Of a DNA stretch of 13,966 nucleotides, positions 492 through 10,461 are shown piece after piece (the stretch's first letter is position 1; every line of letters begins with the position of its first letter). Location of the stretch: UHGV virus genome UHGV-0038964. One strand, given 5' to 3'. This stretch comes from a virus. The position numbers were made by a program, and so were the translations under genes. The notes beneath the pieces were generated by a model. The model worked only from the letters and a program-made list of their open reading frames with translations. It was not told where the DNA came from and made no database searches.

Positions 492-1343
492 ATGATAAAT
501 TATGTCTACGGCGAACAACTGTACCAGGAGTTCGTCAGCTTCAGGGATCTCTTTCTAAAAAAAGCTGTTGCACGCGCCCAACACGTTGATGCCGCCAGCG
601 ACGGTCGTCCTGTACGCCCGGTTGTCGTTCTGCCGTTCAAAGAAACGGACAGCATTCAGGCTGAAATTGATAAATGGACTTTAATGGCGCGGGAACTGGA
701 ACAGTACCCAGACCTCAATATCCCAAAGACTATTTTATATCCTGTGCCTAACATCCTTCGCGGTGTGCGTAAGGTTACGACCTATCAGACAGAAGCTGTA
801 AACAGCGTCAACATGACCGCTGGCCGCATTATTCATCTGATTGATAAGGACATTCGCATCCAAAAAAGCGCGGGGTTCAATGAGCACAGTGCGAAATACA
901 TAGAGAACCTGGAAGCAACAAAAGAGCTAATGAAGCAGTACCCGGAGGATGAAAAATTCCGTATGCGCGTACACGGCTTTAGCGAAACAATGCTGCGCGT
1001 TCACTACATCTCCAGTAGTCCTAACTACAATAACGGTAAATCAGTTAGTTACCATGTGCCGCTGTGTGGCGTGTTTATCTGCGATGAAACTCTCCGTGAT
1101 GGAATCATCATCAACGGTGAATTCGAGAAAGCAAAATTTAGCCTTTATGACTCCATAGAACCGATCATCTGCGACCGCTGGCCACAAGCAAAAATATATC
1201 GCCTGGCAGATATTGAAAATGTAAAAAAACAAATTGCCATCACTCGCGAAGAGAAAAAGGTTAAGTCAGCCGCATCAGTTACGCGCAGCCGTAAAACCAA
1301 GAAGGGGCAGCCAGTAAACGACAACCCCGAAAGCGCGCAATAA
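492..1343 (+). CDS. c1: C1-like master repressor of lysogeny (283 aa)
   Basis: ATG at 492 with GGAGGAGG 5 nt upstream; 283 aa with a Lys/Arg-rich C-terminal tail. Length, the coi partner upstream and C1-operator-like sites elsewhere in the window fit P1 C1. The identification rests on recalled length and context, not on an alignment. Confidence 0.7.
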   Translation: MINYVYGEQLYQEFVSFRDLFLKKAVARAQHVDAASDGRPVRPVVVLPFKETDSIQAEIDKWTLMARELEQYPDLNIPKTILYPVPNILRGVRKVTTYQTEAVNSVNMTAGRIIHLIDKDIRIQKSAGFNEHSAKYIENLEATKELMKQYPEDEKFRMRVHGFSETMLRVHYISSSPNYNNGKSVSYHVPLCGVFICDETLRDGIIINGEFEKAKFSLYDSIEPIICDRWPQAKIYRLADIENVKKQIAITREEKKVKSAASVTRSRKTKKGQPVNDNPESAQ

Positions 1344-1376: not shown

Positions 1377-2387
1377 TATTCAGCCGCCACCGGTTTTAAC
1401 AAGCCAGCATCGAGCAGTTTACGCGTCAACCACTGCTGGCCTTTACCCGTTAATTGAGGCGTCAACCGTATCTGATAGCCATCTTCATCATCCAGCACCA
1501 CTTCTTTCACCGTGAAATAATCGACTATGACGAACGATATAAGGCGTAATGTGAGCGCCAGCTCCCGCAGCTCCACAGCCACAGCATGGACGGGAAGCCA
1601 CAAAGTCCATGTACTCGGGCAATTTTAGCGATTGAAGTTTTGGTATTTTGAAATGCGCCATACCTGGGTCGGAGTCAACATCCACAGGGCATACTTTTGC
1701 ACGCATCGGCGCGGCGCGTTCTTCCATCATTTGAACATATGCTGTAGCGCGATCGTCATACGGGCGAATATCCGCCTCTTTCAGAGGTCCGCTATCCTGC
1801 GGAGTAGCCTTCATCTTATTTATTGATATGCGGCAGACTTCTTCCGGCATCAGGTGCATCATGTTGCGCATGAAAGCCCACCAGCACAGCTCCTGAATAC
1901 TTAAATCATGGCTATTTGAAAGGCCCATTTCCTGACGGGCGACATCCAGTATCCAGTTAACGCGATTATTGTGCAGCGTTTCTTTCAGCTCATTAAAACC
2001 ACGCATCCGGTAATGGTTATCGTGATGCCAGCACAACAACACCGCGCTATTGTCTCGTTCTGCGTGGACAATATGGTTGTCACACCAACTACGATCTGCG
2101 GCCTGGCATTGACCCTCTTTCCTACGCAACCACGCCACCAGCGCGTCAATTCCACCAATACGGCGAAACAGTTCATCGCTGTTAAAAAACGGCTGCAACG
2201 CCTCATTTGTTGCCATGGTTTGCTCCGTAACAACGAGGCCGTCTTCCATGTGCTCGATTAACTCACGCGGCACCGGCTCCATAATAAATTTACGGCCAGC
2301 CTCCACCAGCTTTCGGACCTCCTGATCCACTTTGAACGTGGCGAGGCCAAGCTCTTTCTGTACAAAGGGAGTAATTACGGCTTTCAC
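1376..2387 (-). CDS. HNH-motif protein (DUF968-like guess) with an apparent frameshift; main frame 1488-2387, C-terminal segment continues in another frame at 1376-1603
   Basis: GTG start at 2387 with AAGGTG 5 nt upstream. Internal motif CDNHIVH...N...LLCWHHDNH resembles an HNH/zinc-finger nuclease core. The last 35 residues of the 299-aa frame are low-complexity ([14 protein letters not shown]...), while the overlapping frame encodes a protein-like 75-aa tail. Confidence 0.5.
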
Positions 2388-2979: not shown

Positions 2980-3200
2980 TATCGGTTAACCAGTTCCTTG
3001 TTGGTGGAGTCCAGGGTGTCAAACAGGGATGCAAATTCAGCATCCAGCGCCGCTTTTTTGTAGGCTTCGAAAGTAGCCTTGCTGACAATTACTGCTGGCT
3101 CACGGCCTCTGCGGGTGATTTCAACCTCTTCCCCGGCTTCAACATTGTTGAGCACTTCAGAAAGGTTGCCGCGCGCGGTACGGAAGTTAATGGATTGCAT
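2979..3200 (-). CDS. phd: Phd antitoxin (Phd/YefM family), 73 aa
   Basis: [41 protein letters not shown]... matches P1 Phd as I recall it; true ATG at 3198-3200 with GAGGTG upstream. The track start at 3206 is a GTG two codons earlier. Confidence 0.9.
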
Positions 3201-3206
3201 AAACAC

Positions 3207-3233
3207 CTCGTGTACTCGTTATGTGTACACAAT
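3207..3233. promoter_or_regulatory. Putative Phd/Doc autoregulatory operator (GTGTAC core at 3210-3215 and palindrome TGTGTACACA at 3222-3231)
   Basis: Two GTGTAC-containing sites immediately upstream of the phd start, one a perfect 10-bp palindrome. Phd is known to autoregulate at palindromic sites in its promoter; the exact site sequence is not recalled. Confidence 0.35.
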
Positions 3234-3272
3234 TATAAACTTCACAGGCATAAAGCACCAGCACTTTGCAGC

Positions 3273-3662
3273 TTAAATCACCGGACAGTCATCAAATTCC
3301 CCACTTCGGGCATCATTGATGACATGAGTGATCACACCAAAAACAGCATTACTACCCGTGTAACCATCGTCATCTACTGGTAACGCCTCTTTCTTCCCGG
3401 TGCTTAAATCCTCCAGGTGCTGGCGCGGATACTTTCGGTATCTCTTTATGCGATATTCACCCTCCATAGCGCAGACAAGCAGCGAACCATCAACCGGAGT
3501 AAGCGAGGAATCAACCACCAGCAAAGCACCCTGCAATATTCCCTCACGGTGATGGCTGTCTGCCGCCCGCATGAAGTATGTCGCTGATGGATGCCTGATT
3601 AGTTGCTGATCAAGAGAAATTCTGCTTTCAACATAATCCGCCGCAGGAGAAGGGAAGCCCAT
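3273..3662 (-). CDS. humD: HumD, UmuD'-like polymerase V accessory subunit homologue (LexA/S24 peptidase fold), 129 aa
   Basis: ATG at 3660-3662 with GAGGTGA upstream; UmuD'-like sequence; gene order humD-phd-doc as in P1; LexA box immediately upstream. Confidence 0.8.
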   Translation of the reverse strand: MGFPSPAADYVESRISLDQQLIRHPSATYFMRAADSHHREGILQGALLVVDSSLTPVDGSLLVCAMEGEYRIKRYRKYPRQHLEDLSTGKKEALPVDDDGYTGSNAVFGVITHVINDARSGEFDDCPVI

Positions 3663-3681
3663 AGCGTTTTCACCTCAACAA

Positions 3682-3701
3682 TACTGTTTATTTATACAGT
3701 A
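3682..3701. promoter_or_regulatory. LexA (SOS) box TACTGTTTATTTATACAGTA
   Basis: CTGT at 3684-3687 and ACAG at 3696-3699 with an 8-nt AT-rich spacer; a perfect CTGT-N8-ACAG palindrome about 20 nt upstream of the humD ATG, in the divergent region shared with the + strand gene at 3837. Confidence 0.75.
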
Positions 3702-3836
3702 TACATTAAAGAGACACCTTTGGTGCAAACGCGTTATGTACATCAACCACCGCAGATGATTTTGTGCGCTTTGCTACTATTCATCACCAACGGATCAGCG
3801 TAACCTCGTTGCCAATCAGTTAATAAGGAATTAGCT

Positions 3837-4412
3837 ATGCCTAATCGCATTCCTCTCGATCCTGTATTGCCCAAAAATTTTGACTGCACTCCTAACGAGA
3901 AACGCTCTAAAGCTCAGCTGGACGCCTGGTGGGATCATCCGTATGGAGTTACACAATCTGACGGGAAAATTGTTGTTTTTTGTCTAAACGGTGGCGCGTG
4001 GGACCGTCCATCCATGCTTTGTTTGGCAGATAACTATGATGACGCCTGTGAACTTGCAGAAAGAAAGCAGGCAAGCTGGGTAAAAACACGGTCTAAACCG
4101 TCATTCATGTTTTCAATAGAACCGCCATTTATCCTAGCAAGGATGCCGCAGCGACCAGACCAGGAACAGCAAGAGATTGTTGCCGAATTTGATTCAAGGG
4201 AAGAAATGAACCTCTTCACGATGAAACAGGAACAAGAAGAGAATCTTGGAGTTTCACCATTTTTGGATCACAAGAGTATGAACCTCGACCTGCTTATCTG
4301 GTACAGCAATGAGCTTGAGTTATCGCTGTCCCGGCTTGAAAAAGAAAAAGCAGCTATCCAGGCACAACGTGAAGCTGTGTTGGCGCGGATTAAAGAAGTA
4401 CAGAACGGATGA
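3837..4412 (+). CDS. Hypothetical protein (191 aa) with a coiled-coil C-terminus; divergent from humD
   Basis: ATG at 3837 with AAGGAA 7 nt upstream; no overlapping competitor ORF; the C-terminal 60 aa are heptad-like (LELSLSRLEKEKAAIQAQREAVLARIKE). Function unknown. Confidence 0.55.
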   Translation: MPNRIPLDPVLPKNFDCTPNEKRSKAQLDAWWDHPYGVTQSDGKIVVFCLNGGAWDRPSMLCLADNYDDACELAERKQASWVKTRSKPSFMFSIEPPFILARMPQRPDQEQQEIVAEFDSREEMNLFTMKQEQEENLGVSPFLDHKSMNLDLLIWYSNELELSLSRLEKEKAAIQAQREAVLARIKEVQNG

Positions 4413-4418
4413 TTGCTG

Positions 4419-4682
4419 TTATTTTTTGATGGTATCGTCTTTTTGGTATACCGGATCGCTTCCCTTTGGCAACTGGAGGCTTAACTGCCGGTAGTGCCGT
4501 AGACGTTCCATGAAATAGGTGCGCAGGTTCTCTGGTTGCTCGCGGGCTACCTGTTCAGCTATGACAGGTATGTTCAATCGCTCTTTGTAGGCAACCCCCC
4601 TAGCAGCCAGGTCAACGTTAACTTTATTCCTTTCTTCCTGGCTTTTAGCTGCTATGTTCCATTCGTTCATATTAAATCCCAT
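4419..4682 (-). CDS. hot: Hot, homologue of DNA polymerase III theta subunit (HolE-like)
   Basis: The stretch [42 protein letters not shown] resembles E. coli theta ([42 protein letters not shown], recalled). Start is either the ATG at 4682 or the ATG at 4670. Confidence 0.7.
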
Positions 4683-5138
4683 CCAGAATAATTGAATAAC
4701 GGCTATTATTTAGTCGCCGCAATATCTTCAAAGTTTTTTTCTCACCCCATTGCTTTTTGCGCACAGCTTATCTGGCTTGCGGTGCGCCGAAATGTAAATT
4801 CGCCTTCAGAGTTATCCACAAAGTTATGCACTTGCAACGAGGCCATTTTCCTCATACTGTGTTTGCACACACAGGAAATGGATATTTTATTAATTGAATT
4901 TTATTAAATAATAATGATAAGGAGAAAATTTGAGATGTAATCATGACATTAATAGATAGGGCCTGCATTACAGGCCCCAACTACATCAAGGAATTCACAG
5001 TTCCCTGATTTTTATACCGAAAACATGTGCCGTAAGTTCACGTTAACGACTTTCTTTCACCGAATCCAACTATATAGAGGTTGGGTTTCTACGTCAACGT
5101 GAGAGCACACAGCTTTACATTTGACGAGGATTACCCTG

Positions 5139-9166: not shown

Positions 9167-9184
9167 TGAATCGCCACAGATAAT

Positions 9185-10090
9185 CTAGACACTTCCGAGC
9201 CGCTGATAATATTGTTTTTCGTATTCAGTTGGTGGCATATGATCACTCGAACCATGCCGACGCTTACTGTTATAAAACATTTCGATGTAATCAAAAATAT
9301 CACCGCGAGCTTCTTCTCGCGTTCCGTAGATCTTTTTCTTTATCCGTTCACGTTTCAGTAACTGGAAAAAACTTTCTGCGACTGCGTTGTCATGACAGTT
9401 ACCGCGACGGCTCATACTGCCCTCCAGCCCGTGTGATTTCAGGAACGACTGCCACTCATAGCTTGTGTACTGACTGCCTTGATCAGAATGAACCAGCACC
9501 TGCTTTTGAGGATTACGTCGCCACACGGCCATCAGAAGTGCATTCAGGACAATATCCTTTGTCATCCGGGGCTGCATTGACCAGCCAATAACTTTGCGCG
9601 AGAACAGGTCAACAACCACAGCCAGATACAGCCAGCCTTCGTGAGTCCGGATGTAGGTGATGTCCGTTACCCAACGCTCATCCGGTGCTTCCGGGTTGAA
9701 CTGCCGCTGGAGCCTGTTGGGCGTCACGATGCTGGTTTCACCCTTACGTGCCCGTGGGCTACGGTACCCGACCTGAGCCCTTATCCCGGCACGCTTCATC
9801 AGTCGCCAGACACGGTTAACTCCGCACTGTTGTCCGGTATCCCGCAGGTCGAGGTGGATCTTGCGATAACCATAAACGCAACCCGACTCCAGCCAGAACT
9901 GCTTTATCAGCCCCGTCAGTCTCAGGTCAGCATGATGCCGCCGTGAATCCGGCTGCTGAAGCTAGGCGTAAAAACCACTCGGATGCACATCCAGCACCCG
10001 ACAAAGCAGTCGGACAGGCCAGCAATGGGTGTTGTCACGGATAAAGGCGTACCTCAGTCGGACAGCTTTGCGAAGTACGCCGCGGCTTTT
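9185..10090 (-). pseudogene. IS3-family transposase orfB (DDE catalytic domain), interrupted by an in-frame TAG
   Basis: The orfB frame is open from the slippery site (about 10090) and reads ...LLCRVLDVHPSGFYA, then TAG at 9962-9964, then LQQPDSRRHHADLRLTGLIKQFWLESGCVYGYRKIHLDLRD... continuing into the track ORF 9185-9799. Confidence 0.7.
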
Positions 10091-10332
10091 TTTAATATGT
10101 CCCGTTCGTCGGTAACCCGCTTCAGCTCTTTCTGGAGGCGTCGGATCTCAGCCTGAGCGTCTGACTGGACTTTATTGGTTGAGGAATCCGGGCCATATGC
10201 CTTTATCCAGGCATAAAGACTGTGGGTGGTGATACCGAGACGTGTTGCCACGCTGGAAACAGAATGGCCGCGATCAACAACCTGTTTTACCGCTTCAATT
10301 TTAAACTCTTCGGGATAACGCTTACCGCTCAT
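10054..10332 (-). CDS. IS3-family transposase orfA (helix-turn-helix / leucine-zipper part)
   Basis: ATG at 10330-10332 with GAGAGG upstream (the track start at 10338 is a GTG); ends ...DILKKAAAYFAKLSD. The ATATTAAAAAAAGCC slippery heptanucleotide at 10085-10099 marks the -1 frameshift into orfB. Confidence 0.8.
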   Translation of the reverse strand: MSGKRYPEEFKIEAVKQVVDRGHSVSSVATRLGITTHSLYAWIKAYGPDSSTNKVQSDAQAEIRRLQKELKRVTDERDILKKAAAYFAKLSD

Positions 10333-10392
10333 GGGCACCTCTCTTTAAGTCATCTTAAATGACTCTGAGGTGTCTGTTAAACCCGTGGCGAT

Positions 10393-10461
10393 TCATCCAT
10401 CAATATCAACTATGACGATATACGGACGTTCCTGGTGTGCGTGTTTATTGAAAATACTCAA
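10393..10461 (-). pseudogene. 5' portion of the same HAD phosphatase gene (LSIFNKHAHQERPYIVIVDIDG), cut off by the IS
   Basis: In frame with the 3' portion once the IS and one TCC copy are removed. The only candidate start is the TTG at 10459-10461, with GGAGGG 4 nt upstream; the IS terminal TGA now supplies the stop. Confidence 0.45.

Follow-up and report, generated by a model that had tools for sequence, protein, structure and literature searches.

Between the divergent genes humD and lxr of P1-like phage-plasmids lies a single LexA (SOS) box, and the locus raises the question of whether this operator serves humD, lxr, or both. The public records answer it in two ways. In the P1 GenBank record (AF234172/AF234173/NC_005856) the site is a protein_bind feature described as "LexA binding site in the regulatory region of lxr and humD," whereas the P7 record annotates the orthologous site as "LexA; regulation of humD expression," naming humD only. 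We analyzed this locus in a 13,966-nt stretch of DNA, referred to below as the window, and compared it with about 150 related loci, including 80 anchored on HumD (IMG/VR) and 65 anchored on Lxr. A consensus promoter scan of 3200-4750 called zero sigma-70 promoters; promoters were assigned by a weight-matrix scan combined with comparative footprinting instead.

The Element and the Genes Flanking the Box

Over its entire length the window matches P1-like phage-plasmids of E. coli, Shigella, E. albertii, and Salmonella at 100% identity, and is itself a P1-like phage-plasmid. Its phd-humD-lxr-hot segment (3200-4750) shares 89.4% identity with phage P1. The gene order is the same in both (doc-phd-humD, divergent lxr, then hot), and humD and the intergenic region match P1 at 95-100% of nucleotides.

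The humD gene (3273-3662, minus strand) encodes a 129-aa UmuD'-like protein identical to P1 HumD at 128/129 residues (99%). It matches Pfam Peptidase_S24 (PF00717; E=5.7e-9, above the gathering score) and PHROG 811, "UmuD-like" (E=4e-55). The Pfam match runs from residue 1, which corresponds to profile position 8, and the product has the size of UmuD' without the N-terminal cleavable segment. The neighbors of humD are phd and lxr, with no umuC-like ORF adjacent.

On the other side of the box, a 191-aa gene is encoded at 3837-4412 (plus strand). A sequence-only reading of this DNA had noticed that the gene occupies the place of lxr in P1 and had left its identity undecided. Its position between humD and hot (DNA polymerase III theta homolog; 4419-4682, minus strand, on the far side of lxr) is indeed that of P1, and protein comparison settled the matter: the product is 81% identical to P1 Lxr (AAQ14180; P1 gp102) over 191/190 residues (E=9e-121), 80% identical to P7 Upf94.2 over the full length, and matches PHROG 6164, a family with no assigned function, at E=3e-110 (positions 1-190 of 194). 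By these matches the gene is a true ortholog of lxr.

The LexA Box

An E. coli-type LexA box is defined by a CTGT-N8-ACAG palindromic core, ideally TACTGT-(AT)4-ACAGTA. The sequence TACTGTTTATTTATACAGTA at 3682-3701 (in the humD sense, TACTGTATAAATAAACAGTA) contains this core and departs from the textbook consensus TACTGTATATATATACAGTA only in two bases at the center of the spacer, so that 18/20 consensus positions and all 12 arm positions agree. The exact motif TACTGT-N8-ACAGTA occurred in 0/200 dinucleotide-preserving shuffles of the window; when as many as two mismatches are allowed, 0.30 sites per window would be expected by chance. We also scored the site with a heterology-index-style matrix, which was rebuilt from 21 E. 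coli SOS boxes and is approximate, not the published matrix. On this approximate matrix the box scored 1.3 in the humD sense and 3.1 in the opposite one, ahead of most chromosomal SOS boxes. The threshold of the heterology index for LexA-binding sites is reportedly about 12.6, and by that value and the approximate matrix the box falls in the binding range. Since the second-best LexA-like site in the 13,966-nt window scores only 13.3, some 10 units worse, the window holds a single strong box.

The intergenic region comprises the whole span 3662-3837. Within it, 19 nt separate the box from the ATG of humD and 135 nt separate it from that of lxr, the same distances as in P1. The sequence-only reading had described a lone, near-perfect SOS box about 20 nt from the humD start, with none for the divergent gene about 135 nt away, and that description is accurate throughout. 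The P1 box reads TACTGTTCATTTATACAGTA; the one base by which the window departs from it is nearer to the consensus and gives a better score. Because the P1 record already annotates the site, the box as such is not a new finding. It is the known SOS operator of P1-type humD, in a P1-like plasmid common in E. coli, Shigella, E. albertii, and Salmonella, and is of little import by itself. What is added here concerns the gene that the operator goes with, the place of the humD promoter, and the family to which Lxr belongs.

Distribution of the Box Among Related Loci

In all 80 of the IMG/VR humD loci a LexA box was found 18-19 nt upstream of the humD ATG. The gene lxr was present at 33 of these loci and absent from 46; the flank was too short at one. 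The central spacers vary (ATGAATAA, ATAAATGA, ACAGATAA, and others), and both half-sites, CTGT and ACAG, are kept in 80/80. The box is retained in RCS47 and D6, in which humD stands beside hot without lxr, and in the more distant Cyrano, which has neither lxr nor hot.

The survey anchored on Lxr gave the complementary picture. Wherever humD lay divergent to lxr, the box was present (52/52 loci) and was located 124-136 nt upstream of lxr. At the loci without a divergent humD, no LexA-like site was detected within 400 nt upstream of lxr (0/11; best score 14 or worse). One of the related elements, L151, carries humD downstream of lxr, and its box (CACTGGTCATATGTACAGTA) is 19 nt upstream of humD and away from the lxr start. 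In the E. albertii P1-like plasmid CP070291, phd-doc adjoins lxr, and the locus has no humD and no intact box. No LexA box was found at the short-form Lxr homologs on Pseudomonas and Klebsiella plasmids.

Loci that carry humD without lxr part from the window sequence at ~3733-3737, just past the predicted humD -35 element (see below), which suggests that humD moves together with the box and the promoter, as one module. Comparison of the related loci shows that the operator accompanies humD, not lxr. Because the box always accompanies humD and never lxr alone, direct co-regulation of lxr is disfavored. The comparative evidence thus ties the operator to humD and does not back the propagated label "LexA-regulated" of lxr, which has only adjacency behind it; such control is probably not direct.

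Strong LexA boxes also occur elsewhere in Salmonella phage-plasmid-like elements with a diverged lxr (L016, 4727-4746; L019, 4390-4409; L153, 3096-3115). One of them, TACTGTGTTTTCATACAGTA, lies 1.1 kb downstream of lxr and precedes an 88-aa gene by about 15 nt. These boxes may belong to other small SOS-controlled genes.

The Predicted humD Promoter

The weight-matrix scan predicted a humD -10 hexamer, TATACT, at 3698-3703 (minus strand), the last four bases of which are the first four bases of the LexA box. The predicted -35, TTGCAC at 3723-3728 (minus strand), is separated from it by a long spacer of 19 nt and has a middling score of 7.4, at about the 80th percentile of the window background. 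A Shine-Dalgarno sequence, GAGGTG, can be read at 3671-3676 (minus strand), 8 nt before the ATG, and is kept as GAGGTG or GAGGTA among the relatives.

Five upstream backgrounds could be compared. TATACT is found at the same position in four of them, with a variant in the fifth, and a TTGnnn-type -35 likewise keeps its position across all five. The predicted promoters are TTGCAC-19-TATACT in the P1/P7-type background, TTCACA-18-TATACT in the RCS47/D6-type (score 11.1 for RCS47), TTGCAC with TATACT in the L095-type, TTCAAA-17-TATACT in Cyrano (10.3), and TTGACA with a 16-17-nt spacer and a -10 of TAATAC/AATACT in L151. The versions of the -35 in RCS47, Cyrano, and L151 are stronger than that of the window and occupy the same place. 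On the strength of the scan and of this conserved placement, the humD promoter most likely overlaps the LexA box.

This assignment moves the promoter onto the box from the site given in the P1 record, where a "predicted PhumD" (TTGATG-17-CATCCT) is located about 480 nt upstream, within lxr. That candidate is weak, and substitutions together with a 3-nt insertion in the window destroy its -35; we therefore rejected it as the conserved humD promoter.

In lab P1 (AF234173, ~3999-4004) the hexamer that corresponds to TATACT of the window reads TGTACT, so that G replaces A at the second base, a critical one, of the putative -10. TATACT is present in 78/80 IMG/VR relatives, the other two having TATGCT, and also in the window, P7, and Cyrano. 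Expression of HumD in lab P1 is reportedly weak. The TGTACT hexamer could account for this weak expression, and it could also be the reason why the P1 annotators placed PhumD elsewhere. As the natural relatives do not have the lab P1 change in the -10, conclusions about weak HumD expression drawn from lab P1 may not transfer to natural P1-like plasmids. Such plasmids disseminate resistance genes, and they could provide a cofactor for mutagenesis that is SOS-inducible.

A terminator scan detected no intrinsic terminator between the humD stop and phd (3207-3272); SOS-induced humD transcripts might therefore run on into phd-doc. The Rfam search of 3200-4750 matched no RNA family.

The Region Upstream of lxr

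No strong promoter was found for lxr. The best candidate in the weight-matrix scan was an extended -10, TGcTACTAT, at 3772-3780 (plus strand), between 71 and 79 nt past the box and separated from the lxr ATG by 56 nt. It is weak and tentative: it scores 3.3 in the window, and its P1 counterpart 7.3. The E. albertii element, which lacks both humD and the box, has a comparable block, TGcCACAAT, upstream of lxr. Footprinting of the region across diverged homologs revealed no common promoter, the sequences being too diverged to align. The only plus-strand candidate overlapping the box was TTCACC-18-TATACA (score 3.6), the -10 of which does not have the invariant final T. A C1 operator was also considered for this region; the best match to its sequence, ATTGCTCTAATAAATTT, is near 3770 and agrees by eye at only 9/17 positions, and the idea was rejected.

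Taken with the distribution of the box, these predictions suggest that lxr probably has its own promoter, beyond the reach of LexA. On balance, and by a modest margin of confidence, we favor the view that lxr is not directly repressed by LexA.

Proposed Regulation and Alternative Explanations

At humD, as at chromosomal SOS boxes of E. coli such as the umuDC operator, the palindrome (CTGT-N8-ACAG) is 20 bp long, is flanked by TA, and has an AT-rich spacer; here it overlaps the predicted promoter of a UmuD-family gene. When SOS boxes cover the -10/+1 region, repression is expected to be by occlusion and to be relieved by RecA-stimulated cleavage of LexA. We consider it very likely that the palindrome at 3682-3701 serves the humD promoter as its LexA operator, and from its predicted overlap with the -10 we infer that humD is very probably SOS-repressed by promoter occlusion. 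In the humD sense the proposed layout would be TTGCAC, 19 nt, TATACT, the box extending from inside the -10 to about +10, GAGGTG, and the ATG. A LexA dimer on the box would block RNA polymerase at this promoter; upon DNA damage, RecA-stimulated self-cleavage of LexA would free it, and HumD would be made as a ready-processed UmuD'-like subunit able to work with host UmuC. HumD reportedly can complement UmuD'. The system differs from umuDC in that humD stands alone, without a umuC partner, and its 129-aa product is sized like already-cleaved UmuD'. Control would therefore be transcriptional only, without a second, post-translational RecA step. The gene lxr would form a separate module, with its own promoter placed between ~3737 and 3836 (TGcTACTAT at 3772-3780 being the best candidate). 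The box would then lie near -95 relative to the lxr start, and LexA bound there would not occlude lxr.

The view that the palindrome arose by chance or is a relic, and regulates nothing, has nothing specific in its favor beyond the AT-richness of the region, and is hard to reconcile with the absence of an exact match from the 200 shuffles, with the preservation of CTGT and ACAG in 80/80 relatives despite spacer variation, and with a position relative to the humD ATG that is fixed even in the distant Cyrano and L151; we regard it as scarcely credible. A more serious contender is a bidirectional operator, in which one box would repress both genes and the lxr promoter would overlap the box, giving a leader of about 130 nt. 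The P1 record assigns the site to both genes and names lxr "LexA regulated function," and neither the consensus nor the weight-matrix scan yielded a strong alternative promoter for lxr. The plus-strand match TTCACC-18-TATACA does overlap the box, but it is poor in both score and -10. The spacing between box and lxr is fixed at 124-136 nt in 52/52 humD-lxr loci, but it is uninformative because these loci are near-identical in sequence. Against a shared operator, lxr homologs outside the humD neighborhood never bear the box, the box persists wherever lxr is absent, and P7 assigns the site to humD expression only. We therefore judge common repression of the two genes to be rather unlikely, and well behind the reading in which the operator serves humD.

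The two genes could also be coupled indirectly. Divergent promoters at close spacing can influence each other, and the predicted humD -35 (3723-3728) and the candidate lxr promoter region (~3750-3780) would be back-to-back and only ~25-50 bp apart. Release of humD might then shift lxr output through supercoiling or competition for polymerase, so that lxr, while not occluded by LexA, would show a weak SOS response. This explanation depends on two predicted promoters, and the comparative data do not require any coupling; it appears to us quite improbable.

Lxr and its Protein Family

The sequence-only reading had called the product of lxr a coiled-coil protein. The label suits the C-terminal ~40 residues and not the remainder. 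AlphaFold gave Lxr a pLDDT of 88 over its whole length and of 93 over the N-domain. Residues 1-125 fold as a globular alpha/beta domain, and a single long helix is predicted for residues 150-190. Hydrophobic residues in this helix recur at seven-residue spacing (L153, L160, L167, I174, V181, V188), a heptad pattern that suggests, in the modeled structure, a dimerizing coiled coil. Lxr had no match in Pfam, NCBIfam, or PADLOC, and nothing significant was retrieved by sequence search of the PDB or, at E<=0.001, by Foldseek against the PDB.

The conserved N-domain (residues 1 to ~125) is 50-66% identical to stand-alone proteins of 130-140 aa from plasmids and phage-plasmids of Pseudomonas, Xanthomonas, Burkholderia, Bradyrhizobium, Mesorhizobium, Klebsiella, and Salmonella. 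The motifs WWDHP and CLNGGxWDR are invariant in both. Unlike Lxr, the stand-alone homologs have no C-terminal heptad helix, no humD neighbor, and no LexA box. They are annotated as hypothetical or as "DNA-binding protein," an NCBI label on Lxr homologs that we could trace to no model. An exhaustive profile search placed Lxr in a broad plasmid protein family without a Pfam entry, comprising 468 clusters at 50% identity and ranging over alpha-, beta-, and gammaproteobacterial mobile elements. Many members carry other extensions, and no Pfam domain was found in the longer ones.

The contexts of these homologs are diverse. In Klebsiella phage-plasmids, the lxr homolog stands alone among genes for RecA, gp32, and polymerase III alpha, and in other elements it closes a long run of small unknown genes. 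On Pseudomonas and Xanthomonas plasmids (L003-L006, 5001-5408), a 135-aa homolog of the Lxr N-domain is located between a 66-67-aa gene and a serine resolvase gene, the start of which overlaps the stop of the homolog; RepA_C and Fic/VbhA genes adjoin. The Pseudomonas/Xanthomonas context suggests a link to plasmid maintenance or resolution, not to SOS. Overall, the contexts of the family (maintenance, replication, resolution, small accessory genes) hint at a role in DNA handling or establishment over an SOS function. We give an even chance to the view that the name Lxr is a misnomer, the gene being outside LexA control and its product a P1-lineage fusion of N-domain and heptad helix within a widespread plasmid/phage-plasmid family. 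In a CRISPRi study, lxr and humD were both scored as non-essential for P1 (PMC10695390). No report on the expression or function of lxr was found in the literature searched.

Other Differences from P1

The body of lxr in the window is a divergent allele, with 65-90% nucleotide identity to P1 over 3900-4499. A mosaic boundary lies within the gene: identity to P1 is 95-100% over 3200-3899, that is, through the first ~20 lxr codons, and 65-90% over the remainder of lxr and the 3' end of hot. Such a pattern fits the "hot-lxr" variable region described for P1-like plasmids (PMC9603915, PMC6906374).

The element also differs from P1 in that lpa-pacAB is missing. The c1 gene (492-1343, plus strand) is joined directly, at ~1344-1520, to a 3'-truncated pdcB (DUF968; ORF 1488-2387, minus strand). 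Homology on the c1/coi side stops at ~1519 and homology to P1 pdcB begins at 1517; the lpa-pacA-pacB segment that P1 has between them is therefore absent. Lacking the late activator and pacase, the element may be a non-packaging, plasmid-only derivative of P1. A further 1,230-bp block (9167-10396), absent from P1, splits the pap-pmgS region. It holds a 204-aa ORF (9185-9799, minus strand) with integrase-core (rve) domains and is therefore probably an IS element.
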